This document shows, piece by piece, positions 555 to 60,496 of a stretch of DNA of 64,000 nt. A model generated the notes under the pieces. It was not told where the DNA came from. It worked only from the letters and a program-made list of their open reading frames with translations, and made no database searches. Both the position numbers and the translations under genes were made by a program. Numbering within the stretch: position 1 is the stretch's first letter; the number at the start of each line of letters is the position of its first letter. Source of the DNA: Eledone cirrhosa (Eukaryota); the NCBI GenBank assembly GCA_964016885.1, contig OZ024762.1:6200001-6264000 (forward strand), written 5' to 3'.

Positions 555-1746
555 GGAATATAATCTTTCCACTAAATCAGATTTTATTTTGCTTTGATGA
601 GTTATTCACATCAAGTTCTAAAATGGTTATAAACTGTACCTTTATTAGGTAAAACACTAATGTATGTGTATATGTATGTATGTATGTGTGTACAGTTAGT
701 TTATGTCTCATAACTTAGTAACTTAATGGTTCAACAAATAGAGATTGATAAAATATGTACCAGGCATGAAATAAAATAAAATAAATACTGGAGTTGATAT
801 AATTGACTAAATCCTTTTGATGTGGTGCCCCAGCATGGCCACAGTCTAATGACTGAAATCAATAGAAAAATAAAGTTGGGTTTCCTATTCAATATTTCAT
901 TTTATTGAGATAAATATCAGAACTAAAATTATAGTTTTTCATTTTTCTATCTATTGGAATCCTTAAACATCATAATTATCTAATAATCTCAGACCTGATT
1001 TCATTAATCCCAATCTAACTTAGACATTGTGTTTATATTATATGTCTCGACATACCACTGATAATATGGATTAAATTAATCTCTTGTTAAGCATCTTAAC
1101 ATCTCTCCCTAGCCCCTCTCTCTCAAACCTCTCGAGATTTCATTTTCATTCCTAACTTACCTTCAGATCAGTTCAAGCCCCTAACTTTGGTTTAACCTTT
1201 TTTTGATACCAAACTGCTTGAAACCGTCCCTGGTTTTATGATCTTATTCTTCCTCTTCTTTGCTCACTTATTCCTTTGAGGTTTGTGGAGGCAGAGTCCT
1301 CAAGCACATATCCCAGTATGTCCTGTCAGAAGCAATCGTCACCAATTGTTATGTTATGTTCCTAACACCCCTGGTTTGATGATACTAAGCTGTTTATTTT
1401 AAAGTGCTTATATTTCTCTAAAACCCTATCATTATGATATGTAAGAACCTTTGTTAAATTATGTTCCAAACACCAACTTAATAATTTTTTCTACTTTTGG
1501 CACAAGACCAGCATTTTGATAGGAAGGTAAAATCGATTAAATCATCCCCATAAAGATGAAAGGCAAAGGTAACCTCAGCGGGATTTGAACTCAGAATGTA
1601 AAGGCTTGTAACTATATGCCGCAAAGCATGTTATCCAATACTCTACTGATACTGCCAATTCACCACCAAATAGTAACTTGATAATGAAATATTTTACTAA
1701 ATCTTCCAAATTATTATTTTCAAAATCATAGGCAGTGTCTTTCATC

Positions 1747-1955
1747 AGAAATATGGTAATGAAAGGGTTAAACATAGACAGTGTCTCTCTTTAGAAATAT
1801 GGTAATGAAAGGGTTAAACATAGACAGTGTCTCTCTTTAGAAATATGGTAATGAAAGGGTTAAACATAGACAGTGTCTCTCTTTAGAAATATGGTAATGA
1901 AAGGGTTAAACATTGGCTGTGTTTTCACCAAAAATATGGTAATGAAGAGGTTAAA
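1747..1955. repeat. 46-bp tandem repeat (~4 copies) of a piggyBac-type right terminus
   Basis: agaaatatggtaatgaaagggttaaacatagacagtgtctctcttt repeated. Confidence 0.85.
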
Positions 1956-2159
1956 ACATTGTAAATTCTAACAATCTATTTCTCTTCCAACTACATCAAT
2001 ATTAAGACTAAGGTACTCCAAATATAAAATAGCAAGACTTTTATATACATAGCCTCAGCAATGGAAAGACCAAAGGAAAAGACCAGCTTTTGACCTATTT
2101 TTCATTAAACTTTACGATATTTGATTTGGCTCAGTGTGTTCTGAGTTCAAATCCTGCCT

Positions 2160-2690
2160 GCTTCTGTCAGGAGTTGTGTTTGACAGATAGCATTAGTAAT
2201 GGAAAGACCAGTGGAAATATATTTTCCTTGGTTTGATCTGATGATCAGCTCCCTTCTTCTGCCAGGAGTTGTCCAACAGATAGCATTAGTAATGGAAAGA
2301 CCAGTGGAAATATATTTTCCTTGGTTTGATCTGATGATCAGCTCCCTTCTTCTGCCAGGAGTTGTCCAACAGATAGCATCAGTAATGGAAAGACCAATAG
2401 AAACATATTTTCCTTAGTTTGATTTGATGATCAGCTCCCTTCTTCTGCCAGGAGTTGTTATTGACTGTCAGTCAGCAATGTAAGCATTGTTTCCTTGTCT
2501 TCTCCCAGAAGTTAAGACTGACTGACAGATAATATCAGCAATGGAAAGTCTATTGGAAACAGTTTTTTGGTTCAATCTGATGATCAGTTCCTCTTTTCTG
2601 CCAGGAGTTGTGACTGATTGATAGTACCAGCAATGGAAAGACCAAGGGAAACAGTGTCTCCTTGGTTCAATCTGACAATCGGCTTCTTTT
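2160..2690. repeat. ~93-bp tandem repeat (~5 copies) of a SINE family 1 tail
   Basis: 'cagatagcattagtaatggaaagacc...gatctgatgatcagctcccttcttctgccaggagttgt' repeated. Confidence 0.85.
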
Positions 2691-4151
2691 CTTTTCCCTT
2701 TTCAGTAGATAAGCAAAGTACAAAATCCTACTTGTGTCAATTTTGACCCAATATCTTGTGAGTGAATTTTGTTAGACTGAAACTATTTGGAAGCCTGTTA
2801 AATGTACTGGACTTGTAATACAAAGTAGCAAATTTGTTGTACACTGTACCAAACTATATCTCCCTGAAAAATTATGTTATGGGTACTGGTGTCTATGGAA
2901 TGCTCAGCCACTTACATTATAATACAAGATGGACTGTAACTGTAATTCAAAGAGCCAGCCATGTCACACACTGTGTCATGCTGAATCTCCCTGAGAATTA
3001 TGTTATGGGTACATGTGCCTGTGGAATGCTGAATCATATTATGGACTGTACCTATAAAGGTCCAGCCTTGTCACACAGTGTCATAATCATCATCTTCATT
3101 ATGTTAAGGGTACACATGTTTGTGGAATGCTCAGACACTTGCTCATTAATTTCACAAGCAGACTGTTCCATTGATTTAACAACTGGTACATTCATCATCA
3201 AAACCAATGAAGGACCAATCCATATCTAAATCAATGTCTAAATCAATATCTTATCTCAAACTACTTGGTTCTATGATACAAAACTTTTTTTTTAATTGAA
3301 AATCCTTTTATCATAATTTTATGTTAGAACCTTTCCCAAACACCAACTTAATAATGAGAAAGCTAGATATATTGGTAAATCCTTCCAAATTTTTTATTAT
3401 TTTGAAAATGATTTGAAAATCATAGGAAGTGTCTTTCATTAGAAATATAATAATGAAAAGGTTAACGTATTTATATTTATCTAAAAACCTTCCATCATTA
3501 TTTTATGTAAGAACCTTTCAATCAATCGACAAAATCCCAGACCTCATTTGAGTACCGAGTGGGGTATAACTCATCAAATCAGAGCAAAGAAACAATGTTT
3601 CCATTGGTCTTTCCATTGCTGGTACTATCTACCGGTCGCAACTCCTGGCATGAGGAGCAATGTGAAATAAAGCGTTTGGCTCAAGGACATAACATATCGC
3701 CCAGTCTGGAAATTAAACTCACAACCTCGCGTTTGCAAATCCAATTGTCTAACCACTAAACTACATGCCTTCACAAGAACCTTTAGGTCGTTTCAAACAC
3801 CAGCTTAGTTACTTCATCATCATCATCATCATCATCACCGTTTTACGTCCGTTCTTCCACGCTAGCATGGGTTAGACGGGTTGTCCTGTTGTGGGCAGTG
3901 TCTGGTCGGCTGACCATGCCTTGCTCATACAGGAACTGATCTGGCTTGATTTCTACAGCTGGATGCCCTTCCTAACATATATTACTTATATTACTAAATC
4001 CCTAAAATTCTTATTTTCAAAATTATCAGAATCATTATTGTCATTTATTCAAAATATGGTAACGAAAGGGTTAAATTAATTTCTTCTTTTTACCTTTCTT
4101 TCCACAGATCTGTTGCTGTGATATTCATTTCCGGGCCTAACTCTCATAAAC

Positions 4152-4548: not shown

Positions 4549-5409
4549 GTAAGTCTTGAAGTTTATACTCTCAATTATTTAAATTTTTTGATACCAAACT
4601 GCCTGGAACCATCCCAGGTTCTATAATATAAAGCCATATGTTTTAACCCTTTCATCACTGTATTTCTAATAAGACACACTCTATTTCAATTAATCAACTC
4701 TTATCCTGTAATGATTTAATAGAAAATATTTAAAAACAGCCTTGTTAATTGAAATGTTTACAGTATTTTTACTGGTGGACATATTGCTGTGGAAATTTGC
4801 AGTATTAGAATAAAGGCTTTAATATGTAATTGTTTCTACTTATGGCACAAGGCCAGCAATTACCCAGTACATTACTGGTACTTTATTTTATCGACCCTGT
4901 AATATGATGTGGTCATAATGTTGTTTTGTACTTTTACAACAATGGCTAGCTAATGTGGTTTCATGTGATTTGTTAATTCAAATGTTTATAGTATCTTTAC
5001 TAGTGGACATATTATTGTGAAAATTGGCAATATTAGAGTTAAAGACTTTAATTTCTAATGCGATGCAGTTGGCATGGTGTTTTGTTGTACTTTTTCAAGA
5101 ATGTCTTGCTAATGTGGTTTCATGCAGTACAGGATGTCAATTGTTGATGAAGTAGTTTGAGGGTTAAAATAATATGAGGTAGAGAGTAAGAAAGATAGTG
5201 AAGGAGAATGTGTGTGTATGAGAGAGAGAGGGGGTGAAATGTGCCAGAGAAAGATAGAGAGGCAGAAAGAAAGGGAGGATGAGAGAGAAGCAGAATGTTT
5301 GTGTCTGATGTAGAGAGAGAGAGGGAGAGAGAGAGGGGGTGAGTTAAAGAGAATGTGAAATAAAACATGAAAGAGAAATTATTTTATTACTAACATACTA
5401 ACTTAACAT

Positions 5410-6130
5410 CTCTCATCTCATCTCATCTCATCTGTCCCCTAGTCTGGACTGTTGGGGCGCCACAGATGACCTGGCAGCCAGCTTCCTCCATCCCTCTCGC
5501 CTCTCTGCCCTCTTCATGGTTGCACTCAGTTTCATGCCTGTCCATTCTGGGATGTTGTCCACCCATCTCTTTTTCTGTCTGCTTCTCTTCCTTCCTCCTT
5601 GTATTGTTCCCTGCAGGACAGTCCTTGCAAGCCCTGAAGATCTTGTCAGGTGCCCGTACCATCTCAATTTGTGTTTCTTTACAATGGTCAGTAAGTCTTC
5701 ATAAGGACCGATGGCTTGCCAAACTCTGTTTCGCACCTCCTCATTAGAGATGCAATCTCTGTAGGTGATGTCAAGGAGCTTTCTGAAGCATCTCATCTCC
5801 GTAGCCTGTATCCTCCATGTCCGACCACAGCTGATAACCTCCAACTAGGGGGCTCATCTTGGTCACAAACTTGTGGTTGTTGTAGGTCATCTGGGAACTC
5901 GTCCACTTGGGCCAGTGACCTCCACTGCGGAGATCCTTCACCCAGTGGTGCTGTGTTAACACCACTCCCTCACAGGGTTTGGCCTGCCAGCTGAAGTGGT
6001 TTACCAGGACATGGTGCTTGGTGCCACATGTGAGAGATTTAGAGGATGGAGGACCAGTGAAGCCCGTTCACCCGAAGGTGCAGCGTGCCAGACAACAAAT
6101 GTACTACCCCTATTCAGAGTCCCCTATCCT
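5410..6130 (-). mobile_element. Bipartite (internally deleted) non-autonomous RTE-clade LINE derivative
   Basis: RT C-terminus 'RIQATEMRCFRKLL...LRWYGHLTRS...GGRKRSRQKKRWVDNI' with (GAGAT)n tail, fused to a GC-rich 5'UTR-like segment. 8-bp TSD cttaacat at 5402-5409 and 6131-6138. Confidence 0.8.
5966..6130 (-). ncRNA. Candidate HDV-like self-cleaving ribozyme at the element 5' end
   Basis: Hand-folded P1, P1.1, P2, P3 and P4 occur in HDV order. C(UUCG)G hairpin in J1/2. See findings. Confidence 0.6.
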
Positions 6131-6689
6131 CTTAACATACAGTTCTTATATAAAATTATGTTGGAAAATTTTAATTTAAATAGGAATCCTTTAAAATGAG
6201 TGGTTTTGTTTCATAGAATCTGAGAGTTAATGAAAGGTTTTGAAGGATTTACTATAATTAATTATTTCATTACTAAGATAGCAACCTAACATATAGTTCT
6301 TATATAAAACTATTTTGGAAGAGTTTAATTTAAATAGAAACCCTTTAAAATGGGTGGTTTTATTGTATAGGGCCAAAATCAGATTTGGCTGGTTGGTAAG
6401 GTAAGGGTTAACATTTTTGTTTTTAACATCATAAGTTTATGTTAGAAAATCTTATTAAGTTACAACTTCACAATGTGAGCTATCTTATTAAAGCCCTATA
6501 AATTTTTGATTGTTATTTTCAAAATTAATTGAAATGCAATTAATTTCAAAATTAATTGAAACACAGATGGTGTATTTCATTTCAAATACAGAAACAAAAC
6601 ATGTTATTAAATGGTACAAAAAAAGGAAAGGAAACGAAAAGAAAAAGAAAAAAAGAATTAAGCAACAAAGAAAGGGAAAGGGGGAGGGA

Positions 6690-6990
6690 CAGACATTTCA
6701 CCCCAGTCAAAATATCAGTCTCAGTTGCACCCCAAGGACAAAATATCAAAGGCATTACCTCAAGGTGCTCCTTCTTCAAGCTGGCCACCGTCTCTCCAGC
6801 TTTACGGATAAAAGCAGCAATCCCAAAACTAAGAACATTAGAAGTTTCGATGGAGATTATTACAAAGAGGAAGCAGTTGGTCAGGCCCTGGTATTTGACT
6901 ATCTCCTTGTCCGTTGCATTGCGAGCAGTGGAGCCTGGGTTTGTGGTCAAAGTGACATGGTTGGAGGATAACAAACAATGAAAGCGTTAA
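6690..6990 (-). mobile_element. CRE-clade non-LTR retrotransposon 3' remnant (restriction-like endonuclease region)
   Basis: 'PGSTARNATDKEIVKYQGLTNCFLFVIISIETSNVLSFGIAAFIRKAG' resembles the CRE REL-domain pattern GSAA..AE..K..KY..L...F.F.P.A.ET.G. Confidence 0.6.
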
Positions 6991-7604
6991 AAGTTATAAC
7001 ATCAGATAGAATGCTGTGTGGCCTTCATTCTGGCTCTTTGCTCTCTCAGTTCAAACTCTTTCAATGTCAACTTTACATTTCACTATTTCAAGATCAATAA
7101 AAAGTACCCTAGTCATGTACTGGGGGTGGTTCTTCTATATCTCTTTCTTACTTCCTCTCTCAGACACACACACACACATTCTTACACACAATCTACATCT
7201 CTCTCTCTCTCTCTCTCTCCTTCTCTCTCTCCTTCTCTGGGCGAAATCAGTTGTGTTCAGACTTGGTGGAGTCACAACAGCACCTCTATGACCCCATTGG
7301 GAATTATGGCTCCTTACATACATAGAGAACTAGAGATTATTTTGACTGTAGTATAGAGAGTGGTGGTGGTGGTGGTGTAATAATGACAACAACAACAGCA
7401 ATGATTATGAAGACATTGACTATGACAACAATGCAATTATTAAACTGTCTGCTGTGCATAGATTTTTAGGACAGGACAAGACAGGTAGTTTTGGCTCTTC
7501 TCCAACATCCATTCATCTATCTTACTATCCATTCATCTAACCATGTATACATCCATTTAACCATCCACCCACCAACCCATCTATCCTTCCATCCATCCAT
7601 CAAA

Positions 7605-7637
<33 letters not shown>

Positions 7638-7644
7638 CACCCAA

Positions 7645-8612
7645 GAATGGCCCGTGTGAATGGGCCTTCACTCTACATCAGACTATAGGTGAGGAAGATG
7701 AAAGACCAAGGGAGCACCCCTTCTCTGTGCTCCTGAGGAGAAGGGTTGCACACTTTTTTTCGGGGGTGTGTGCGACCCCCCAAGGCGCCTCCTCTCTATT
7801 GAGGACTTTGTTATAAATTTTATTTTTTGTTATATTTTATTTTATTTTTATATATTGTTATTGCCTCCTCCTTATTGAGGATGCCTTGTTTTGTAAACTC
7901 CCCCCATTGTACTTGTCCCACTTTTGATGCCCTGGTGGAAAATAAAAGAAACATATCTATCTATCCACCCACCCATCTATCTATCTATCTATCTATCTAT
8001 CCAATTGTACACTCCCCGGGTGTAACTGACCTGTGGAACTATGCAGAACAACTGCTGTCGCGTATGGGACAAATCCAGTTGACTGCCGAGTCCATAGTAA
8101 GGATCAAACCGCCAGCCTCTTCCAAAAACGAAAGAGAGGCAGTTTTCCTCTGTACGGTGGCTATGGTGAAAGAAGTTATATGATGGACGAGGTTGAGAGG
8201 ACTGAGGACAGATGCCTTTCTCTCCGGACAACAATTGATTTCCTTCTTTAAGTATCACTTTAGAATGAGAATCAGGGTAGAGAGAGAGGCACTGCACCCC
8301 AGTAAATTTACTGAAAGGTGGGAGAATGAAGCGAAAATGGCCCGAGTGATTGGGCCTTCTCTGTTTATAAGCCTGTAGGTTGAAGAAGAGAGCAAAAGGA
8401 AGAAAGGAGCACTTGCACAACATGCTCTTGGAGTTGAGGGTTGTTCTATCGACGGGGTATTAAACAACCCATTTGTGGCGCCTCCCCCCTATTGGGGATT
8501 TCGATTGTTGTAATTGTTTGTTTTTATATTTTTTACACGACTGTATGTAAAATCCTCGGCATGTCTTTGTATTGTCCTCTTTTCTTGTGCGCCCTTGTGG
8601 CTAATAAAGAAA
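7645..8612 (+). mobile_element. Two 5'-truncated L1/Tx1-like LINE 3' ends embedded in TCTA/TCCA microsatellite
   Basis: ORF ends 'MARVNGPSLYIRL*' and 'FFKYHFRMRIRVEREALHPSKFTERWENEAKMARVIGPSLFISL*'. Each ends AATAAA(A)GAAA followed by (TCTA)n. Confidence 0.6.
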
Positions 8613-8939
8613 TCTATCTATCTATCTATCTATCTATCCACCCATCCATCTACTCATTGTTTGCTGCCTGTTGTTGGATCTATGCGATCTCCAACAAGGA
8701 GTGTTCCAGTTGTATGGTGAATGGCACAGCCAGCTCATGAAATTGAAATGCAAGTGACTGAGCATTCCACAGACAGGAGAAGTCTTTAATATAATTCTCA
8801 GAGGGGTTTGGGTATGACACAGTCTGTGATAAAGTCGCCCCTTCGAATTATAGGTACAACTCCTTTATTTTTCCTGCTGATTGCTGTCACTGGAGCAACA
8901 TGGAATAAAGTATCTTGCTGAAGGACACAATGCACTGCC

Positions 8940-9615
8940 CAATCTAGGAATCAAACACACAATTTTACAATCGTGAGCTGAAAACCCTAACCATTACGCA
9001 AGGCGTCATCACCACATGCTGGTCATGGAAGCAAACACAAATTTACAATCTTGAGCTGGACATCCTAACCACTAGGCTATGTGTGTTCACCACTGGCTGG
9101 CCTTGGAATCAAACTCACAACTTTACAGACTTGAACTGAAAACCCTAACCATTAAGCCACAACATGTTGTTTGTCTGGGAATCAAACTCACAACTTTACA
9201 ATCTTAAGCTGGGCACACTAACCACTAAGCCACACAATATGTTACTTGATCTCAGGAATCAAACTCACAACTTTACTGGACATACTAATCAACTAAGCCC
9301 ACATTGTTCACCACCGGCTGGTCTGGGAATCAAGCATATAACCTTACCATCTTAAGCTGGATATCCTAACCACAAAGCTACCAGTGTTCACCACTGGCTG
9401 GTCTGGGAATCAAATTCACAACTTTACAGCATTGAACACCCTAACCACTAGGTCACACAATATGTTGCTTGGCCTAAGAACTGAACTCACAATTATACAC
9501 CTTGACCACTAAGCGATGAGTCATCACCACTGGCTGGTCTGGGTATCAAACTCACAACCTTACAATGTTAAGCTAGATACACTAGCCACTATGCTAGCAC
9601 TGTTCACCACTGGCT
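8940..9615 (-). repeat. Degenerate ~75-bp tandem array of tRNA-SINE heads (~9 units)
   Basis: Each unit reads GTGGCTTAGTGGTTAG...GTTGTGAGTTTGATTCC on the minus strand. Confidence 0.75.
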
Positions 9616-9721
9616 ACCTGCCTCACGCTACAATAATCCCAGATCATTACAGCGGCTAATTTGTTAAGAAGCCTAAGGTTAGTTAGTAGTGTGAGATTTC
9701 AGTTAATCCGAATGAAATATC

Positions 9722-10440
9722 TGGTGTAGTGGTGATGGTGGTGGTGGTGTAGTTGTGGTGGTAGTGGTAGTAGCGTAGTTGTGGTGGTGGTGGTGGTGGT
9801 AGTGTAGTTGTGGTGGTGGTGGTCGTGGTGGTGGTAGTAGCGTAGTTGTGGTGGTGGTGGTAGTGTAGTTGTAGTGGTGTAGTTGTGGTGGTGGTGGTCG
9901 TGGTAGTGGTAGTAGCGTAGTTGTGGTGGTGGTGGTGGTGGTAGTGTAGTTGTGGTGGTGGTGCTGGTGGTAGTGGTGGTAGTGTAGTTGTGGTGGTGGC
10001 GGTGGTGATGATAGTGTAATTGTGGTGGGGGTGGTAGTGAAGTTGTGGTGGTGGTGGTAGTGAAGTTGTGGTGGTGGTGGTAGTGCAGTTGTGGTGGTGG
10101 TGGTGGTGGTAGTGTAGTTGTGGTGGTAGTGGTAGTGTAGTTGTGGTGGTAGTGTAGTTGTGGTAGTGTAGTTGTGGTGGTGGTGGTAGTGTAGTTGTGG
10201 TGGTAGTGTAGTTGTGGTGGTGGTGGTGGTGGTAGTTGTGGTGGTGGTAGTGTAGTTGTGGTGATGGTGGTGGTGGTAGTGTAGTTGTGGTGGTGGTGGT
10301 GGTGGTAGTGTAGTTGTGGTGGTGGTGGTAGTGTAGTTGTGGTGGTGGTGGTAGTGTAGTTGTGGTGGTGGTGGTGGTAGTGATGTAGTAGTAATGGTAG
10401 TGGTGGTTGTACTAGTGGTGGTGTAGTGGCGGAGGTGGTA
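9722..10440. repeat. Compound (GTG/GTA)n microsatellite
   Basis: gtagtgtagttgtggtggtg higher-order units. Confidence 0.95.
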
Positions 10441-11596
10441 TCTGCAAACATTAAACAATACAGAGACCATAAGAGAGATATCAGCAGATTTGGTTTTCCT
10501 AACCTCGTTACCATTAATTAATTGTTTCTACTTTTGGCACAAGGCCAGCAATTACCCAGTACATTACTGGTACTTTATTTTATCGACCCCGTAAGGATGA
10601 AAGGCAAAGTTAACCTCGGCGGGATTTGAACTCAGAATGGCATGGGCCGTAACTCTATGCGTCAAGGCATGGCGTCCGACCCTCTACCGATACTGCCAAT
10701 CCACCGCCATTAATTAATGTTTATGGGCCTTTACGTTCTGAGTTCAAATCCCGCTAAGGTTAACTTTGCCTTTCATCCTTACGGGGTCGATAAAATAAAG
10801 TACCAGTAATGTACTGGGCAATTGCTGACCTTGTGCCAAAAGTAGAAACAATTAATTAATGTTTATTAAACATCAATATTTTCAAACACAGCACCTACTT
10901 AATTAACAGTCAATTATTAATAACTGAGATTTCGTTTTTCCTTTTATGATTTTTTAGCCTTGCTTGAAAAATGTCTGGTGTGTAGATGGCGAAACTGAAT
11001 TTCTGCTGGGCTTAAATACCTGTATGTTTTGTGATAGCTATTTCTGGTTATAACATCATACTTATTTTGGCTTGCAGTTCAATAGTTCAATATCCACAGA
11101 TTTACCTGGAATAAATTTGCCAAACATATATTTTCTTCTTGTCCCTTCCCTCCCCCAAATTTGCCAGCCTTGTGCCGATGTTGTATGTATGTATGGACCC
11201 ATATCTCCTGCAGGAGTCGTAGGAGTTCCATATTGATATACAGCATTTCTAGACTAGCACTTTTAAAATCCTGGCAGAAACCATCTCCTCTCCAGGTCTG
11301 AATACAGAAGATTTCTTCCAGAGAAGGATAGAAAGTGAGAGAATGGAAATGAGGAGGAGGCAGTGGAAGAATTGGCCCCGGTATTAGACTGGTACATTTT
11401 TTATCAACCTCGAATGGATGAAAGGCAAAGTTGACCTCAGTGGGATTTGAAGTCAGGGAGTAGAGATTCGAAGTGAATACTGCAAAGCATTCTATCTGAT
11501 GTCCTAACGACTCTGCCATTTCGTCGCTTATTGTGTCTAAGTTAGAAATCAATAATACTATATATTTTATTGACATAAAAAAAATAGTATTGATTG

Positions 11597-11928
11597 TGTA
11601 GTGACTAGCGCCACCTTTGTCCGGGGAACAAAACTAATTTGGAGTTACTTCCCCGTGGTCCGAATATAAGGGAGTGTTCTGGCGCCTCTCTCTCTCTTGC
11701 AGCTTGACCTTGCTAAGATAAACACCAATTCTTCTTTTTCTCCGCAAGCACGAACAATATGTAACGACAAAACATTACTATGGGCCTGGCCAACACCTCA
11801 GCCAGTCGACCAAACTTTCCTTACAATCTTAATTGGTTTATTTCATTTCTTTTGGCATGCCAGCTTAATCCACCTCTTAACCTTTGTTAATAAATTATGT
11901 AAAAACTTGCTAAAGTCTTGGTGATACA
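11597..11928 (+). mobile_element. Possible solo LTR (related segment ~55500-55675)
   Basis: TGTA...TACA ends, internal TATAA (11664) and AATAAA (11889). The 3' part is similar to 55570-55670. No clear TSD. Confidence 0.35.
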
Positions 11929-12023
11929 TATATTATATCTTATTACTAAAAAAGATTTACAGAGCTTCAGTGTTATTAAATTTTGCTGATATATATAAAT
12001 ATATTTTCTTCTTTTATTTTTAG

Positions 12024-12724
12024 GTGTGTCAATAACAAACAGCATCTTTACACTAATGGTGATGTCTGTAGATCGCTACTTGTCTTTACAATATGCTCAA
12101 AGCACTCAACGAACCACAACTCCTCAGCAAGCAGTATTCATTATCCTAACAATCTGGGTCCTGGCTGCTTTGATTATGGGACCTTTATTATTCATTCGTG
12201 AAATTGATGTCCTTGTTCTGCCGACATTAGCACCTATGACGTTCTGCATCGAAAACTGGCCCCAGAGTACCGACCGAGAGGCCTACGCCATCTTCTTATT
12301 CTTCGTGGTTTACATCATTCCATCGACAACACTGTTTCTCTGTTATATCCGAGTATTTAAGTATGTCTGTAAGCAAGAAATGCAGCGAGAGAACTCAGAC
12401 TGTAGCACAAAACGCCTGATTAGTCGCAGAAAAGCTGCGCGGATGCTTATCATCCTGGTATTGATGTTTATGATGTGCTGGCTACCTTACAACATAGTAT
12501 CCTTGATCAGCGATATTTGGGGCAGTTCGTGGAACTTGATGGATCTACTGCGTTACACACTGTGGCTAGGACATTCCCACAGCGCAATCAACCCTGTTAT
12601 GTACTGGCTACTTAACAAGAGGTTTCGGCAACACGTTCGCAGAATGTTCCGCCAGACGAGAAACTGTGGCAGTTCGCACACTTGTCATGGGTTTATTAGT
12701 TTACCTACCCCTAAATATGTATAG
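12024..12724 (+). CDS. Class A neuropeptide GPCR, coding exon 2 (TM3 to C-terminus)
   Basis: Acceptor tttttag| at 12023. G+GT gives Gly, then VSITNSIFTLMVMSVDRY (DRY), CWLPY (TM6) and NPVMY (NPxxY). Stop TAG at 12722-12724. Spliced protein about 365 aa. Confidence 0.9.
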
Positions 12725-14345: not shown

Positions 14346-14770
14346 CACTCAGTTGGAAAATGAAGTTGAGTTGTACCTGTTATTCAAAAGACCAGCCTTG
14401 TCACACACTGTGTCATGCTGAATCTCCCTGAGAACTACGTTAACAATGAATGTGTCCATAAAATGCTCAGTCACTTGCAAGTTAATTACTTGAGTAGGCT
14501 TTTCTGTTGTGTGAACATTTGAAACATTCATCATGGAAACAGAAGGAAGTCCAACAACAACATGTGTGTGTATATATTTGTTTGTCTGTGTGTGTGTGCC
14601 TATATTTGTGTGTATGTGTTTAAATGCATGTGTATGTGTATATAAATACATGTGTGTTTGTGTTTAAATGCATGGGGCCCCTTGCATATATATTGTTGTA
14701 AAATATAAATTTGGGGAGGGGGCTTTAAATATTGTGGTGGTTGCTTTGAATTATGTGACTACAGTTCAAT

Positions 14771-15530
14771 CAGGTCCCTGGACACAACCCAGTGAGGCCC
14801 CTAGCAACAACCTAGTCAGGTCCCTGGACACAACCCAGTGAGGCCCCTAGCAACAACCTAGTCAGGTCCCTGGACACAACCCAGTGAGGCCCCTAGCAAC
14901 AACCTAGTCAGGTCCCTGGACACAACCCAGTGAGGCCCCTAGCAACAAGCTAGTCAGGTCCCTGGACACAACCCAGTGAGGCCCCTAGCAACAACCTAGT
15001 CAGGTTCCTGGACACAACCCAGTGAGGCCCCTAGCAACAACCTAGTCAGGTCCCTGGACACAACCCAGTGAGGCCCCTAGCAACAACCTAGTCAGGTCCC
15101 TGGACACAACCCAGTGAGGTCCCTAGCAACAACCTAGTCAGGTCCCTGGACACAACCCAGTGAGGCCCCTAGCAACAACCTAGTCAGGTTCCTGGACACA
15201 ACCCAGTGAGGCCCCTAGCAACAACCTAGTCAGGTTCCTGGACACAACCCAGTGAGGCCCCTAGCAACAACCTAGTCAGGTCCCTGGACACAACCCAGTG
15301 AGGCCCCTAGCAACAACCTAGTCAGGTCCCTGGACACAACCCAGTGAGGTCCCTAGCAACAACAGATCCCTGGTCACAAGCCAGTGAGGTCCCTAGCAAC
15401 AACCCAGTCAGGTCCCTGGACACAAGCCAGTGAGGTCCCTAGCAACAACCTAGTCAGGTTCCTGGACACAAGCCAGTGAGGGCCCTAGCAACAACAGGTC
15501 CCTGGACAACAACCCAGTCAGCTCCCTAGT
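14771..15530. repeat. 46-bp GC-rich minisatellite (~16 copies)
   Basis: caggtccctggacacaacccagtgaggcccctagcaacaacctagt repeated, degenerating at the 3' end. Confidence 0.95.
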
Positions 15531-15620
15531 TACAACCAAGTTAAGCCCCAGTCTTTTGTCTGCAGTCTAATCTGACCCCTTCCCTCCAGCCTAGTCAGGC
15601 CTAACCCCTTAATCTGCCAC

Positions 15621-17395: not shown

Positions 17396-18106
17396 CAATG
17401 AGAGAAAGAAACATTGGCTTTATGGTGGTAGAAGGAGAGCAGAAGTTATGTTTGTGCCTTCTTTCCTAAGAACATTACTGGTATAAGTGGAATGGTTCTG
17501 ACTAGGAGTTGAACCAAAGTCAGGAACTCAGTTTGCTGAGAAATTATTTATCACAACGATTTGCCACTCACAGAAATTGTAGATTTTTTTTACAATAAAA
17601 AAAATATATGATTTATTAATTTATTATTAAAGATAAAATTATTTTATTAGAAAAAAAAATTCATGGCAGAAAAAATTATTTATTTATCTATTATTTATTA
17701 CAGACAAAATGGATATATTATAAGTGAAAAAACTAACTTATTACAGACCAAAATTATGTATAATTTTATTGCAAACAAAATTAATTTATTATAAAAAAGA
17801 AATTAAATTATTGTGAAAAAAAAAAAAATTAATTTATTATTACAGCCAAAATTAATTTATTACAGAAAAAAAATTATGGATTAATTATTACAGATACAAA
17901 TAGTTTATTACAGAAAGGAAATGATTTAATAATATGTTGGTGTTGGAAGACAAAGCTGTCTTTTTTGTTTTGTTTTTTTTTCATTCTACTAAATAAACTA
18001 ATATTATTGAACCAAAATGATGTCTCGTGTGTAATATTTAACATATTGTTATTATTTTTGTTACTATTCTTTACTGCTTTGACTTTTTAAAGTAAAAGAT
18101 TATTGG

Positions 18107-18790
18107 TGTGTAGAGAACTAGTGGTTACTGTAGCTGTTGTGTAGAGAACTGGTGATTACTGTAGCTGTTGTGTAGAGAACTGGTGGTTACTGTAGCTGTT
18201 GTGTAGAGAACTAGTGGTTATTGTAGCTGTTGTGTGGAGAACTAGTGGTTATTGTAGCTGTTGTGTAGAGAACTGGTGGTTACTGTAGCTGTTGTGTAGA
18301 GAACTGGTGGTTACTGTAGCTGTTGTGTAGAGAACTAGTGGTTATTGTAGCTGTTGTGTGGAGAACTAGTGGTTATTGTAGCTGTTGTGTGGAGAACTAG
18401 TGGTTACTGTAGATGTTGTGTAAAGAACTGGTGATTACTGTAGCTGTTGTGTAGAGAACTGGTGGTTACTGTAGCTGTTGTGTAGAGAACTGGTGGTTAC
18501 TGTAGCTGTTGTGTAGAGAACTAGTGGTTATTGTAGCTGTTGTGTGGAGAACTAGTGGTTATTGTAGCTGTTGTGTAGAGAACTGGTGATTACTGTAGCT
18601 GTTGTGTGGAGAACTAGTGGTTATTGTAGCTGTTGTGTAGAGAACTGGTGGTTACTGTAGCTGTTGTGTAGAGAACTGGTGGTTATTGTAGCTGTTGTGT
18701 AGAGAACTGGTGGTTACTGTAGCTGTAATGTAGAGAACTGGTGGTTACTGTAGCTGGTGGTTATTGTAGCTGTTGTGTAGAGAACTGGTG
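18107..18790. repeat. 31-bp minisatellite (~22 copies)
   Basis: gtgtagagaactggtggttactgtagctgtt repeated. Confidence 0.95.
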
Positions 18791-31345: not shown

Positions 31346-33072
31346 ATTAGATTGGTTTATTGATATCACTCTTTCCTGGGTATCACCGCCACCAGCCACG
31401 TGATAACCACCAAACCATTACTACCAGGGAAGTCGGAACAAAGATAGCTAGTCTATTAGGCTTTAAATCTACTCCTATTATTAAGTTCCTCTTTGCTATT
31501 AAATATCATCTGCTTTCGTTAGTTATTTAAACAAATTTAATTCACTATTTATATTTATTGTCACGGAAATAAAAAAAAAACAGATTGCTATTTAATCTGG
31601 CTTATAAATCTACTCCTATTAAATATACCTGCTTTTGTTCGTTCTTTAAACAAATCTCCAGTTATCAAGACAGAGATATGTTTCTTTATTAGCCACAGGG
31701 GCACAAAAGAAGGGGACAAATACAAAGGGGGAAGTTTACATACAATAAAAACGTGTAAAATATTATCACAAATGTAATTTAAAAATTTTACCCATTCATT
31801 CATTCATTTGCTAACATTCTACCTTCCCGTGTGTCCCTCTCCACGCACCCCCTTCTTTTCTCTCTTGTCTTCTGATACCTCCATATCTGATGTAGGTGAG
31901 CTATGAGGCCCTCTTATCAGCACTTTCCTTTCCACACAGTTGTGCCTAGCACCTAGGCTGGTGATAACCAGCCACTCATCCCAGATGCCGATTGGTGCCC
32001 CAGTCCCTGGCCCCACGCCCCATCCTCCATCCCCACCAGTCAACACCTGTAGCATTTGCACCACCACAAATAGGTGGAAGAGGGGCCGGAACTGTTCAGG
32101 GTGCGGCTGCTTCCACCATGTCACCTGTGCTGGCTTGACGCGTCGAGCCTCCAGTGCCCTCGCAACGTGGAGATGCAGAAACTGTCTCTTCCCCTCGTCT
32201 GCCCAGCCACGACCGTCTGGCACACCACCAGATGAGACAGCGAGCTTGCCTGACGCCCAAGCCTCGCTGGTCAACATCGCTCGTCTCAGGCGGTTCCGGA
32301 AGATCCCACTCAGGATGCCGAGAGCGGCCCGGGTGCCGGTAGCCGATGCCCTCGCTTCCTCTATTGAGAGCGCCCTGGGCTTCAATCGAGCCAGGGACTC
32401 TTCTATTTCGCCCACTCGCCCTCGGCCTCCCCAGCTCTGGCGCTGACTGAGGCGGCCGGTCAACAGCAGCTTTTGTCAAAGCCAATGTTTCGTCCTTTGG
32501 GCAAGCGCCCATTCCAAGCATGCCTAGGGAAGCCACACACCCTACTCTTGAGTACCCCCCATCCTCCACCCCTGAGACCAGCGCCAAGCGTTTGCATGAC
32601 CGTGTAAATGCCAAATTAATCGTGGGTGATGTCTTGGCCTCAATCAGAGTTGTTGCTGTGGCACTAATGAAGCAAATTGCAATATTTAAAGAGCGTTGTG
32701 AGTTTCTGAAACAATTAGAGGTTCTTGTGGTTTAGCACTAAATTTTTCCTATGATCTAAGACATTCCAGCCGTGACAACCCAGACTTTTAAGGCGGCTAT
32801 TCCTTGCAGGTCGAATGAATATGTAGAGGCTTTCTGTGTATTACAGGTGACACAATATTAGCAAGAAATAACAAAAAAACAAACCACAATTTGAGAATTG
32901 GCAATAAACTAAATTTAATGATTTTTTTTTAGATAGCTATTGAAGAGGCGGAGATAATTTACGTAGTGGGGACAGCTTTGATATATCACCGCTAACAACT
33001 TTCATTACTGCATTACGTTCCTATTACGAATATATCAACTACTCGGTTATATTTATATGAATTCGACGAAAA
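31346..33072. promoter_or_regulatory. Divergent promoter interval MTX1/RIOK2
   Basis: Start codons 1.7 kb apart on opposite strands, with local CpG retention near both starts. TSSs not determined. Confidence 0.5.
31810..32660 (+). mobile_element. CRE-clade non-LTR retrotransposon 5' remnant with PHD finger
   Basis: GC-rich island. C4HC3 pattern CSIC...CSGC..HHVTC...WRCRNC, then 'RMPRAARVPVADALAS' and 'RVNAKLIVGDVLASIRVV' (pre-RT motifs). Frameshifted. Confidence 0.65.
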
Positions 33073-36918: not shown

Positions 36919-37678
36919 TGAAGAATTTTGAGGGATTTACTTGAATTATTATTTTATATGGTGGTAGAGCATCAGACAAAATGCTTTGCAACATTTAGTT
37001 ACGACCCTTTATGTACCAAACTTGAATAACATATCCAAACTGGGGACACTGATACCGACATCATTTTTTTTCCTCTTCGGCTTTTGAAAATAGAAATACT
37101 TTTATTCGTTTTAATTATTATTTGTGGCATATAGTTATGTCCCTTTACATTGGTCTTGTACCTAAATCAGAAACGACTGTTATTATTATTGGGGGGTGAA
37201 TTGGCAGTGTCGGTAGAGGGTCTGACGCCATGCTTTGACGCATAAAGTTACGCCCCTTGCCATTCTGAGATCAAATCCCATCGAGGTTAACTTTGCCTTT
37301 CATCCTTACGGGGTCGATAAAATATAGTACCAGTAATGTACTGGGTAATTGCTGGCCTTGTGCCAAAAGTAGAAACAATTGTTATTGGGGGATTGGTAGT
37401 ATCAACAGAGCATTGGACATCAGGCTTTGCAGCATTTTATTATGACCCCTTATGTTGTGAGTTCAAATCATGCTAACATCAACTTTGCTTTTCATCCTTC
37501 TGGACTCGATAACATAAAGTACTAGTAAAGATATAATCAACTTTCTCCATCCCCAAATTTCTGACCTTAGGGTCAAAATTAGAAACAATTATTTCATATA
37601 AAGATTGTAACTTAACATATGATTCTTATATAAAATTATATTGAAAGATATTAATTCAAATAGGAACCCTTTAAAATA

Positions 37679-37869
37679 GGTGGCTATGTTTCATAGAACC
37701 AAGGTGGCTATGTTACATAGAACCAAGGTGGCTATGTTACATAGAACCAAGGTGGCTATGTTTCATAGAACCAAGGTGGCTATGTTACATAGAACCAAGG
37801 TGGCTATGTTACATAGAACCAAGGTGGCTATGTTACATAGAACCAAGGTGGCTATGTTACATAGAACCA
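37679..37869. repeat. 24-bp minisatellite (8 copies)
   Basis: ggtggctatgttacatagaaccaa, with internal ctatg/catag inverted repeat. Confidence 0.95.
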
Positions 37870-38240: not shown

Positions 38241-43630
<5,390 letters not shown>

Positions 43631-55849: not shown

Positions 55850-57370
55850 ACCACTGGGGAAGATGAAATCCGGCTCAAGATGTTAAAATACTTAAATAGA
55901 GAAGGTATTCTCTGGCTAACTCATGTGTGCTGGGTGGCCTGGATCTCTGGAAAGGCACCTAAGCAATGGGAGTCATAATCCCAATTTTCAAAAAGGGAGA
56001 CAAGAGATTGTTAAGCCTCCCTGGTAAAGTCTATGCTAAGTGTCTGGCAAAGAGATGCAGGGAGATTGTCGAGTCCATGCTAACTGATGAATAATGTGGC
56101 TTTAACCCCGGACGCTGCACAGCCGACCAAATATTCACACTACGGCAGGTCTTCGAGAAATCGTGGGAGTATTGCCTAAAGGTATATTTTTATTTTGTCG
56201 ACCCTGAAAAGGCATATAACCACGTTCCTCGTGACCTGCTGTGGAAGGTTCTGCAGGAGCATGGGACCAATGGTCAGTTTCTTGCTGTCCTGATGTTTCT
56301 ATACGAATGCCCAAGTATTTATATTCGGATAAATGGTGCTAAACCAAAACCAATCAATGTGAGAGTTATACTCCGCCAAAGGTGCGTACTGTCACCTCTC
56401 CTGTTCTTTATTTATATGAACAGTATTGATATGCGCAGTCGGGTTGGAAGTGGTGTCATGATTGGTGGGGTTTAAAATCAGTCGACTGGAATTTGCAGAT
56501 GACATGATGTTACTAAACTCGACTGAAGTGATCTCCGACTTGCGCTTGATAGGTTTGATGCCGAGTGCTGCATGGCTGGAATGAAAATCAGTGCTGCAAA
56601 AACTGAGACACTCATTCTCTCACGGGAGCCTGTGCAGTGCACTCTACATGTGAATGGAGTTCCACTGAAGTAGGTAGAGGAGTTCAAGTATCTCGGGGTC
56701 ATGTTCACAAGTGTTGGAAGGCAGGAGGCTGAATTAAATGCAAGAATTGCAGGAATTGGTGCAGTAATGCACCAACTTCAGCATTCAGTATTCAGTAATC
56801 AGAAGGGAATAGGCGTAAAAGCCAAACTCACTATCTTCAATTCGGTATTGGTGCCAACCCTTACTTAGGGTCATGAATCTTGAGCAATGTCCGAAAGAAT
56901 ACGATCGAAAATACAAGCGGCCGAAATGAGGTTCCTCTAAAGGGTCTTTGGATTAACGTTACTCGATAAAGTACGTAGCTTGGAGATCAGAGTCACTCCA
57001 GGTAGAGCTACTACTTCTCTGAATTGAGAGATCACAGCTCTGATACTATGGACATGTGGTTAGAATGTCTCAGGAAAGATTTGTAGCTCTGAGATCAGAG
57101 AGTCACTCCAGGTAGAGCTGCTACTTCTCTGAATTGAGAGATCACAGCTCCAATACTATGGTGGGCATGTGGTTAGAATGTCTCGGGAAAGAATCGCTGG
57201 CCGGATATTACAGGCAAAACCAACCGACAGGAGACCCAAAGATAGATCCCAAGCAAGATAGTTGGATAACATCCATGAGCTTGGCTGGTCTCGCTACAGG
57301 ACCTGCTGGAAGGAGCGTTTGAGGAATGTGACCTAACAACCCTCTCAGGAATAAGTGGGTGAAGAGGAGG
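55850..57370 (+). mobile_element. Degenerate RTE-clade LINE reverse transcriptase with 3' end
   Basis: Motifs 'IPIFKKGD', 'DQIFTLRQVFEK', 'FVDPEKAYNHV', 'RQRCVLSPLLFFIYM', 'FADD', 'FKYLGV'. Multiple stops and frameshifts; internal duplication ~56980-57185. Confidence 0.9.
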
Positions 57371-58201
57371 AAATATGTATCCGTGAATTTCTTGGTGGAG
57401 TAATGTAAGAAAAAGCTGATACTTCAAAACAATACTCTACACCGAAAAGGTATGAATGCCATACCCCTTTCCCCCATAATTCTTATGTCTAGCTATCTAA
57501 CAGATCCCTATTTTATTGCAGTAAATGTGCATAGCTTAGTGGCTAGGGTGTTTTATACATGATCGTGGGTCCGGTTTATGGCGACGCGCTTGTCCTTAAA
57601 CAAGACACTTTCAGTTGTATCTTTAATTCAAAGGGCCAGCTTTGTCACACGCTGTGAATCTTCCTGAGAACTATGTTAAGGATGCTCGCGTTTGTAGAAT
57701 TCTCAGCCACTTTCACGTTAGTTTCACGAGCAGGCTGTTCTATTGTTAGAATCAACTGGAACACTTGTCATCGGAACTGATGGTAGCCCGATATATATAT
57801 ATTGTTGGTTTTGGTATCTGACCGCTTTAAACAATTGAAGCAGTTAACTTGGCTCCGTTTGCAGGGCTGGGCAAATTTGAAGAAGTACACTTTCATCGAT
57901 GACACCGTTACTTCCGACTGCCATTGATTATTTTTAAGCAAATAGGCCATTGCTATGTTATCTTCTGTATATCGTTCAGCTCTAACAGATTTAGACCAAA
58001 ACGGCAATTATTTATTATAAGAAATTATTATTTTTACATGAAACAATTTAAACCAATGGAATAACTTGTTGTTTGTGGTCACCGTTTATCCAGGTATTTA
58101 TCTCGATACAAAAAACCTTGTCAATATTTCACTAACAACTTGCATTACGCCGGAGGTTAGGCGTTAGTCCTAATTCCTTGTCCATTCAACACAACATACA
58201 A

Positions 58202-60496
58202 ATGAACACTAACTATATATTCATTTTGCTGACTGGCAGTTTAACTGCTTTAAATATTTGTGTTGTTACTGGCACAGAGGACCTGTATGACGTTTTAGGT
58301 GTGAGCAAGTTCGCCTCGTCCCAGGAGATTAAAAAGGCCTATAAAAACTTAGCGAAAATATGGCATCCTGATAAAAATAACGACCCTCATGCTACGGACA
58401 AATTTATGAAAATTAACGAGGCTTATGAAACTCTGGCTGACAATGACAAACGCTCCCTGTACGACAGGCATGGCTACAGCTCTGCACAAGAACCACCCCC
58501 AGGTAGTCAAAGAGGAGCTGGTTTCGGTGACTCCATGTTTTTTAGGCATGGACCCTTCAGTTCATTTAATTTTAATTTTGGAGGTGGTGAATCTATTGTT
58601 GATAAATATACTATTTCTTTAAGATATTACGAGAGTCATGTTGTTCCCAACAGTTACAAACAGCCCTATTTTTTATACGCTTATACAGACTTTTGTTTTG
58701 CTTGCATGCATTACGAACCTTTGATTGAAAAATTAATCAAGGAACTCGAAGAAATTGGTTTTGGCGTAGCATCAGTTAACGTGGCTTCCAGTCGCCCCCT
58801 TGCTAGTAAACTCCGGTTGCATGAAATACCCCAAATCATGGGAGTGATAAACGGGCAGGTACATTATCTGAGAAAACAGGTATCAATGCAGATTCTCAGG
58901 GATTTCATCCGCAACCTTTTCCCAGCTAATATTATTCAACGTTTAGATGACAAAAGCATCCAAGAATTCTTGCTTGGTTGGTCAGATAATCGAGTGCGTG
59001 CGTTATTTTTCTCTCCAAAAGATAAAATTCCAGGTAGGTTTCTTGTACCTGCATTAAAATTCCAAGGGAAGATAGTATCTGGTTTCATAAACACAAAAGA
59101 GCAGTCTCTTGTGAGCAACAGTTTACAGAAATATAATATAAATAGTGGCAGAGATACTCTTGTCCTTGTGGGAGAAAACATCAACAGTACACTAGCAGTT
59201 ATCACCATGCCTTCATTGTCAAAAGCTAACGTGGAGGAATATATGAACACCTTCCAATTTTTGATACTGCCACGATTATCTTCTGAACTGTTTTTTGATG
59301 AAATCTGTTCCATTGAGAGCAGAGTTAAACAGAGAAAGTTGTGTGTTGTTCTTTTGACTCAGAAAACTGAGGAACATGATGCTCATCGAAGACTATTTCG
59401 AAAATATGTTCAGCAGACACCTTCCTTTGAGAATCGAGTGAAATTTTCATACATCTACAAAGATATTCAGTATCGGTTTGTTGACACTCTCGTAGATGGC
59501 AACCGCTCAGACAAGGCTGATGATGACAACATTATCAAGATTGTTATTCTATGGAGAATGAACAAAAACCATATAAATTATGAATGGGTTAAACCTGGTT
59601 GGTCACAAGAACCTCATGAAAACCAACTGGTTTGTCAAAACTTGGAAAAACGTTTGCATGAATTAATCTCTACTTCCAACAAACTTCATTACACTGCAGT
59701 ATATACCTCATTTTATAATGAAGATTCATCTGGAATGATTATGGAGATTCTAACAAAAATATCCAACGGCTTATATAATTTCTATGAATATATTACAGTA
59801 TGTGTAAGTAGCTTTGATGGTGCAACATGGCTTACTATTTGGTTATCTATAGTTATTACTGTGGTACTGTTTCAAAGGAAACTTTTGATGAAAGAAATGA
59901 AAAATAGACAAGCAGAGAAGAGAAAGCAACAGGAGTCGAGGGCTTCTGGTGAAAGATCACTGTACAGTAACTCAACTGTACATCTCCATGAACTTTGCAG
60001 TCAATCCTTCAATAGGTTGATAAAAAATGCAGATGCATGTTTAACAATCACAGTATTAGTTAACAAAGAAAGCAAAGAAAAATTATTGGCAAAATTTTTG
60101 CAAATCATTCAGCCATATTCTCGATCAACAACATTAAAGTTTGCATTCCTTCGATTAGATCATCATTTGAATTGGTATCAACAGTTATTGCAAGATAGTA
60201 AAGGTCTATCTGAGCCACTCTCTGAAACTAACTGCATTGGTACAGTAATTGCTATTAATGCTTATCGCAAGTACTATTACATTTTCCAATCAAAGAATGC
60301 CTCTAAATGGGCAAAAAAGACAAACTGCGGTAAGAAATGTTCCATATTTGACTCTGATTCAGATGAAGCTTGTGAAACTGAAAATGTCTTTGACGGATTT
60401 TTGGTAGGTTTGGAAATCTGGTTAGATAAAATAGTCGATGGATTGTTGCAAAGGATTTCTATTCAGAATTGGCCAGAAATGGAAAATTCTCTCTAA
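58202..60496 (+). CDS. DNAJC16: DnaJ homolog subfamily C member 16 (signal peptide, J domain, thioredoxin-like domain, TM); single coding exon
   Basis: First ATG at 58202 gives 764 aa. Hydrophobic leader, J domain (DLYDVLGV...WHPDKN...INEAYETL), Trx-like 'YTDFCFACMHYEP', TM 'WLTIWLSIVITVVLF'. Confidence 0.92.
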   Translation: MNTNYIFILLTGSLTALNICVVTGTEDLYDVLGVSKFASSQEIKKAYKNLAKIWHPDKNNDPHATDKFMKINEAYETLADNDKRSLYDRHGYSSAQEPPPGSQRGAGFGDSMFFRHGPFSSFNFNFGGGESIVDKYTISLRYYESHVVPNSYKQPYFLYAYTDFCFACMHYEPLIEKLIKELEEIGFGVASVNVASSRPLASKLRLHEIPQIMGVINGQVHYLRKQVSMQILRDFIRNLFPANIIQRLDDKSIQEFLLGWSDNRVRALFFSPKDKIPGRFLVPALKFQGKIVSGFINTKEQSLVSNSLQKYNINSGRDTLVLVGENINSTLAVITMPSLSKANVEEYMNTFQFLILPRLSSELFFDEICSIESRVKQRKLCVVLLTQKTEEHDAHRRLFRKYVQQTPSFENRVKFSYIYKDIQYRFVDTLVDGNRSDKADDDNIIKIVILWRMNKNHINYEWVKPGWSQEPHENQLVCQNLEKRLHELISTSNKLHYTAVYTSFYNEDSSGMIMEILTKISNGLYNFYEYITVCVSSFDGATWLTIWLSIVITVVLFQRKLLMKEMKNRQAEKRKQQESRASGERSLYSNSTVHLHELCSQSFNRLIKNADACLTITVLVNKESKEKLLAKFLQIIQPYSRSTTLKFAFLRLDHHLNWYQQLLQDSKGLSEPLSETNCIGTVIAINAYRKYYYIFQSKNASKWAKKTNCGKKCSIFDSDSDEACETENVFDGFLVGLEIWLDKIVDGLLQRISIQNWPEMENSL

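Follow-up and report, generated by a model that had tools for sequence, protein, structure and literature searches.

The insertion at positions 5410-6130 raises the question of whether a short element capped by an HDV-like ribozyme has spread as a family of its own or whether a single damaged copy of a longer retrotransposon is present. The window, that is, the whole stretch of 64,000 nucleotides analyzed here, was compared with read contigs, protein databases, and metagenome loci. Quite probably, the locus holds a single RTE-type LINE copy that carries an internal deletion and is bounded by an 8-bp target-site duplication (TSD), and whose first 164 bases correspond to an HDV-like fold that is likely decayed and inactive.

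Insertion Site and Parental Element

The 8-bp TSD proposed from the sequence alone was confirmed on both sides, and a single insertion was retained, with its size corrected from 720 to 721 bp (table 1). The target is an AT-rich host repeat (window 6131-6218), and the empty site noticed earlier in a neighboring repeat copy was found at 6260-6376 and also at 37587-37702. Contigs of the empty form that run upstream past 6131 amount to 250 in run X1, which comes from the same organism as the window and is possibly its own source, and to 189 in X4, which comes from another organism. One X1 contig of 390 nt is identical to the window over 5771-6160 (0 differences); thus, the deletion junction and the 5′ border are not assembly errors, if X1 is not simply the source of the window. 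The target repeat itself is very abundant, with a summed depth of >300,000 in X1.

The two exons around the host intron match positions 1-65 and 63-260 of the 7tm_1 profile. The element is antisense to this plus-strand GPCR gene and within its intron, and therefore would not cut the host transcript.

Table 1. Positions of the Element, Its Predicted Ribozyme Parts, and Its Surroundings in the Window
Feature	Positions	Strand	Evidence or remark
Host intron of rhodopsin-family GPCR gene	4550-12024	+	7tm_1 on flanking exons; GT and AG ends
Left TSD copy (8 bp)	5402-5409	.	Sequence
Whole insertion, internally deleted RTE-type LINE copy, 721 bp	5410-6130	-	Relatives and X1 contig
3′ tail of 5-nt repeats, starting at the stop codon	5410-5432	-	Sequence
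C-terminal 129 codons plus stop of the single APE-RT ORF, in another frame than the 5′ part	5428-5814	-	Protein identity
Deletion junction, 2-4 nt fitting both sides	5813-5816	-	Alignments; family contigs stop at 5809-5814
Remainder of 5′ leader, as far as the relatives' MERDG-like motif	5813-5966	-	tblastn; similarity to L001 and L005
HDV-like ribozyme fold, large J1/2 type	5967-6130	-	Alignment, covariation, model search
J4/2 (5982-5979) and P2 3′ strand	5967-5982	-	Candidate catalytic C at 5982
P4, weak in window copy	5983-6003	-	-0.7 kcal/mol (L001 -10.6, L005 -2.7)
P1 3′ strand (6012-6006) and P1.1 GG (6005-6004)	6004-6012	-	GG pairing with 6021-6020
P3 (6025-6023/6015-6013, C x A mismatch) and 7-nt L3 (6022-6016)	6013-6025	-	
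P2 5′ strand	6026-6036	-	Extended helix of 11 bp formed with 5978-5967; one C bulged and one pair mismatched (5975)
J1/2 with long P1.2-like hairpin	6037-6123	-	Folds; includes UUCG hairpin 6080-6069 and segment 6054-6043
P1 5′ strand	6124-6130	-	L043 alignment; 6/7 pairs with 6012-6006, A-U at cleavage site
Right TSD copy	6131-6138	.	At 6131, -1 base relative to predicted cleavage site (minus-strand G)
Shifted register (alternative)	P3 6027-6025/6016-6014, P1.1 6023-6022/6006-6005	-	Cleavage one base further in

In the element, the initial 318 nt of an RTE-type LINE are joined to the last 129 codons of that LINE. The frame at 5814-5431 gave 117 matches among 782 candidates, some of them proteins of ~1000 residues with endonuclease (EN) and reverse transcriptase (RT) domains. 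The identity of this C-terminal part is 53-71% to the C-termini of the ~1000-aa EN+RT proteins and up to 77% to shorter ones; no Pfam family was found for the 138-aa frame. Toward the 5′ end, bases 5869-5804 match residues 2-23 of P0018, a ~1000-residue EN+RT protein (tblastn, E 1e-4). In a metagenome scan with an N-terminal alignment, 381 of 555 candidates were confirmed and 80 loci kept, four of which (L001, L005, L043, and L068) resemble the 5′ part of the element.

L001 has an 11-bp TSD, and its protein is 70% identical to P0018 over 1044 columns. It is similar to the element over bases 1-318 at 75% (E 1e-57) and over the 3′ part at 68-70% (68% over 405 columns), with the 5′ leader at 5813-5966 showing 75% to L001 and 67% to L005. 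L043 carries an intact EN+RT ORF of 1017 aa and an 11-bp TSD ending at 1263. The earlier description of a TSD-bounded, bipartite, RTE-type element was borne out. Relative to L001, ~2.7 kb is missing (L001 1117 to 3828). The junction, which had been spread over ~5812-5845, is placed by the alignments at 5813-5816. The two parts are out of frame, and an ATG at 5818 opens 15 codons. It was an overstatement that only the ribozyme/5′ UTR and the RT-binding 3′ end were kept, as the 3′ part includes 387 nt of coding sequence.

The architecture, that is, a single EN+RT ORF in ~3-3.5 kb, a short repeat-ended 3′ UTR, and a TSD, is what we take to be that of the RTE clade; the assignment is made by architecture, the relatives being named in the sources only as endonuclease-reverse transcriptase. 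In detail, the relatives have one ORF of 985-1053 aa with PF03372 and PF00078 (total length 3,429 nt in L001 and 3,430 nt in L043), and the element has a very short 3′ UTR, short tandem repeats at its end, a TSD, and a tail that begins at the stop codon. The RTE clade's single ORF is noted in a passage of PMC9115989.

The autonomous parent would have measured ~3.4 kb with one endonuclease-reverse transcriptase ORF. Its RNA would be cut out of read-through transcripts by the 5′ ribozyme, which would set the first base of the element, and would then be copied into the nicked target from the 3′ repeat tail, as is established for non-LTR elements. The window copy would have lost ~2.7 kb at a microhomology of 2-4 nt. 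RT skipping during insertion has a slightly better than even chance of being the cause, and DNA loss at a later time, after insertion, a slightly worse than even one.

Other features of the window include a second, distant, and broken RT fragment (55948-57300, plus strand), 27% identical to P0018, and an intron-free frame of 786 codons (58136-60496, plus strand) for an animal-type DNAJC16-like protein, possibly a retrocopy or one large exon. A RIO kinase exon is located at 40819-41160. A GC-rich frame (31907-32446, plus strand) has a PHD-finger match below the cut-off (E 0.013) and is perhaps the ORF1 of another LINE. Long tandem arrays occur at 38241-40845 (units of ~25-50 bp), 14770-15549 (~92 bp), and 18104-18790 (~62 bp).

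The HDV-Like Fold at the 5′ End

In the alignment of the window copy with its relatives (A3), the order is a 7-bp P1, a long J1/2, an 11-bp P2 with a bulged C, a 3-bp P3, L3, a CC:GG P1.1, P4, and a four-base J4/2. The five helices follow the nested double-pseudoknot order, with P3 having 2/3 pairs in the window copy and 3/3 in all four relatives. A purine-pyrimidine pair (A6130-U6006) is found at the predicted cleavage site at the 5′ end of the element. The P1 5′ strand aligns with L043 1264-1270, where all seven pairs are Watson-Crick and the strand starts, with a G-C pair, at the first base after the TSD. The candidate catalytic C is in a J4/2 of the form C-N-R-A (5982-5979) and is present in 5/5 sequences; its neighbors 5981, 5980, and 5983 vary among local copies.

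The coordinates that the sequence-only reading gave for P2 (6036-6027/5976-5967), the P1 3′ strand (6011-6006), the GG of P1.1 (6005-6004), the UUCG hairpin (6080-6069), and the segment 6054-6043 proved correct, and its P1.1 and catalytic-C region agree with the invariant CC:GG pairs and with the C in 5/5 sequences. Its L3 of 9 nt was abandoned. In the four relatives, the C at 6023 has as its partner a G at the position equivalent to 6015; thus, L3 is 7 nt long and starts with U, the 9 nt being a result of the C x A mismatch in the window copy. The pair U6026-A6012, which had been assigned to P3, can form in 5/5 sequences, but so can U6026-A5978, both letters being invariant. One mismatch in P2 does exist in the window copy, but the position 5975 is paired in the four relatives and in other local copies.

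Covariation was examined in the window copy and the four metagenome relatives, three of the five sequences including the P1 5′ strand. Pairing was found in 87.3% of 126 cells, compared with 76.4 ± 2.0% after shuffling (0/500 shuffles as high) and 33-49% in slid controls, for a structure that was drawn by eye on the same five sequences and is thereby favored in both controls. Changes on both sides were counted in 15 of 29 pairs (P1 5/7, P2 4/11, P3 1/3, P4 5/6, and the invariant P1.1 0/2), and these compensatory changes support the helices. Along with the TSD border of L043, the covariation of the relatives supports the earlier claim that an HDV-like fold begins at the first base of the element.

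The search with HDV models, which had been proposed as a check, gave no Rfam HDV match at gathering score in the window, nor at E ≤ 10 in 5300-6300. A strict HDV descriptor had 0 matches in the window, and the fold energy of 5955-6135 is unremarkable (z -0.91). Therefore, the fold is argued from homology and covariation and not from the window copy by itself. A relaxed descriptor gave three matches in 128 kb, among them the fold of the element. A search with a model built without the window found only 5961-6133 in 64 kb, with 94 bits that mostly reflect sequence likeness to L001.

Energy does not by itself choose the P1 strand in the window copy, in which 6123-6117 gives -6.6 kcal/mol versus -5.9. 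For L001, the values are -7.4 and -6.6 kcal/mol at two internal G-runs versus -4.1 kcal/mol, and the descriptor picked 812-818. The alternative strands at 6123 and 6110 were set aside by the alignment with L043 and not by energy. L043 is the best single witness, as it combines an intact ORF with a perfect P1 strand from the first base after the TSD, aligned with 6130. In the case of L001, the five pairing P1 bases lie inside its TSD (787-797), the last 5 bases of which pair with the P1 3′ strand; this suggests that its 5′ end annealed to the target and that its first two bases were lost through microhomology at insertion.

The strict descriptor matched 6 of the 80 metagenome loci and missed L005, L043, and L068. 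The other five matches, in RTE-like loci (L006, L018, L026, L041, and L052), are unrelated in sequence to the family of the element, and the one in L026, located downstream of the endonuclease region, could be due to chance. Model R1 found only its four training loci among 93. No RTE relative was detected among 141 candidates from viral contigs, in which the core patterns had 13 and 0 matches, with 0/13 scoring with model R1. Two core-pattern matches in GTDB were rejected as chance (best model score 4.5 bits).

A hairpin of ~20 nt with near-identical loops is inserted at the end of L3 in L043 (1373-1405) and L068 (42-78), two distant relatives, both of which have open EN+RT frames (1017 and 943 aa); the window copy, L001, and L005 have no such hairpin. 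No description of a hairpin insertion in L3 was found in the literature searched.

State and Copy Number of the Window Element

The window copy has A at the first L3 base (6022), where the four relatives have U, so the U-G reverse wobble is absent. Unlike in the four relatives, the loop-closing pair of P3 is broken (C x A). These departures at the core had escaped the sequence-only reading. The P1 strand shows a gap in the alignment, and the -1 base is G. In HDV, it is reported that the L3 U-to-A change is inactive in the antigenomic ribozyme, that only U/G, C/A, U/U, G/G, and U/A are active at that L3 pair (PMC3386971), and that G at -1 costs >25-fold in the genomic ribozyme (PMC1874588); defects of P3 and P1 are described as tolerated by R2 ribozymes (PMC3774820). 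Because of the A in place of the conserved L3 U, the broken P3 pair, the weak P4, and the G at -1, the ribozyme of the window copy is likely inactive. In the 3′ part, the element departs from the X1 majority at 26 of 32 listed sites, a divergence of at least 6.8% over 380 nt. Eleven of these differences are silent and 15 are not, the neutral expectation being 33% silent (p 0.20), and such a lack of silent excess is as expected of an aged copy. The window copy is likely a fossil.

An active natural variant is unlikely; on that view, the unusual core letters would belong to the local family, and the ribozyme would work either with A as the first base of L3 and the P3 of the sequence-only reading or in the shifted register (table 1). 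The 40 variants listed, beside which there are 304 others, include two-contig variants at 5974-5983 and none at 6006, 6015, or 6022, though the X4 depth is 46-66 there; thus, the core letters may be shared locally, and the L3 A and the P3 mismatch may be common to the local family rather than private. In the shifted register all three distinguishing letters pair, with 3/3 and 2/2 Watson-Crick pairs in the window copy. On the contrary, this register fails in the four relatives (P3 0-1 of 3 Watson-Crick, P1.1 1/2), has no L3 U-G pair, and needs a 7-nt J4/2. A at the first place of that L3 pair also falls outside the active set reported for HDV (PMC3386971), and in the window copy P4 is nearly unfolded and P1 is trapped.

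Membership in a non-autonomous RTE family that spreads with only a ribozyme leader and the 3′ end is improbable. It would agree with the clean TSD, the exact 5′ end and tail, and the report that RTE is among four clades that form such families (PMC5786205, in part). The ends of a LINE are indeed joined here by an internal deletion, but a junction common to several copies was not found. The counts come from filtered Logan contigs, in which copies <80% alike are uncounted, a few copies could be hidden by the filters, and depth is not a copy number. In X1, the summed depth is 559-3122 over 5433-5804, 12.9 over 5836-5928, and 17-40 over the ribozyme region, the median ratio of the 3′ part to the single-copy level at the junction being 83. 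The depth of 12.9 comes from the one unbroken 390-nt contig, which spans the junction (depth of the contigs listed, 3.6-13.9). In X4, the 3′ part has a depth of 472-1423 versus 0 at 5836-5866, plus a few 5′ ends. Accordingly, the search for copies sharing the junction, which had been proposed as a check, yielded one contig in X1 and none in X4 at 5836-5866. The unbroken contig is a stronger point than depth, because a near-identical copy would presumably break it. No second copy exists within the window, and no RAD read of X5 or X7 falls in 5836-6114, a weak point since RAD samples few sites. The element also keeps 387 nt of coding DNA, versus the 214 + 70 bp given for RTE-N2_Lch (PMC5786205). 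The depths follow the usual LINE pattern, in which 5′-truncated copies are many and full-length ones few, with one deleted copy in addition.

A combination of these ideas, in which a local RTE family of two species has an active slipped-register ribozyme lacking the L3 U-G and the window copy represents a rare non-autonomous derivative, capped by the ribozyme and gated by a refold of P1 and J1/2, is very improbable.

The J1/2 segment had also been proposed as a possible conformational switch. In the minimum-energy fold of the window copy, P1 bases 1-5 are paired with 6054-6043 (probability at least 0.94). Freeing the P1 5′ strand costs 7.9 kcal/mol in the window copy, 1.3 in L001, and 0.0 in L043 without the flank, and 13.3, 3.9, and 2.9 kcal/mol, respectively, with it; the L001 value is a weak test, because the first two P1 bases are absent there. 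The segment forms the 3′ arm of a hairpin in J1/2 and, in L001 and L043, closes a long hairpin directly between P1 and P2, a homologous pairing read by eye; the z-scores of the hairpins are weak (-0.40, -0.18, and -1.94). P1 being trapped only in the window copy (7.9 vs. 1.3 and 0.0 kcal/mol), a conserved switch is not supported. That the segment is a selected anti-P1 switch regulating cleavage is very improbable: the pairing in the window copy and the attenuating refolds described for the L1Tco and NARTco ribozymes (PMC4035085, in part) speak for it, but the release cost is low in both relatives with or without flank, their hairpin arrangement is the one said to activate Agam-2 ribozymes (PMC4908430, in part), and the trap is formed partly with two TSD bases. 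The prediction for the long J1/2 is an activating hairpin in the intact relatives and a trap for the P1 strand in the window copy.

Relation to Known Ribozyme-Bearing Elements

The large HDV-like ribozymes drz-Agam-2 are linked to RTE elements, and Ruminski et al. 2011 reportedly described 5′ HDV-like ribozymes of RTE-clade LINEs. Such ribozymes are reported in PMC5786205, PMC3774820, and PMC6765202. The deleted LINE copy resembles them in a nested double-pseudoknot that starts with the first base of an APE-RT element of the single-ORF type and in a cleavage site predicted at the 5′ junction, where PMC3774820 places it for RTE; it differs in the A at the first L3 place, the P3 mismatch, and the A-U at the cleavage site. 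As in drz-Agam-2, P1 and P2 are separated by a long, structured J1/2, and P2 is extended (11 bp versus 12 bp in Agam-2), but Agam-2 is described as fast and activated by P1.2, whereas the J1/2 of the element is predicted to mispair with P1 (PMC4908430).

Bipartite non-autonomous RTE families (Bov-A, RTE-N2_Lch, RTESINE1/2, WALLSI3, and MAR4_MD) likewise have an RTE 5′ end joined to a 3′ end by internal deletion, and are discussed in print together with RTE ribozymes; those families are multi-copy, whereas the junction of the element is seen once and 129 codons are kept (PMC5786205, as excerpted). R2 SIDEs (PMC3414825) and NARTc/NARTco/SIDER (PMC4035085) also combine a ribozyme with the 3′ end of a non-LTR element whose ORF is lost, but they belong to other clades and have spread as families, several with measured cleavage. 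The copies of Hebe provide a parallel in their intact 5′ end and private internal deletion at microhomology, in another element and host, with the deletions attributed to end-joining repair (PMC2861651, in part). No published description of an octopus RTE with such a ribozyme was found in the literature searched, and Ruminski et al. 2011 and supplements may contain the family.

In conclusion, ribozyme-capped elements of RTE are already known, and no family with the deletion of this element was seen. The locus and its relatives add a predicted set of RTE-type ribozymes in which J1/2 is long and P2 has 11 bp, and L043 offers one clean case in which the first base of the ribozyme is the first base of the element. 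They also call for caution, as an element may be bipartite and bounded by a TSD without forming a family.
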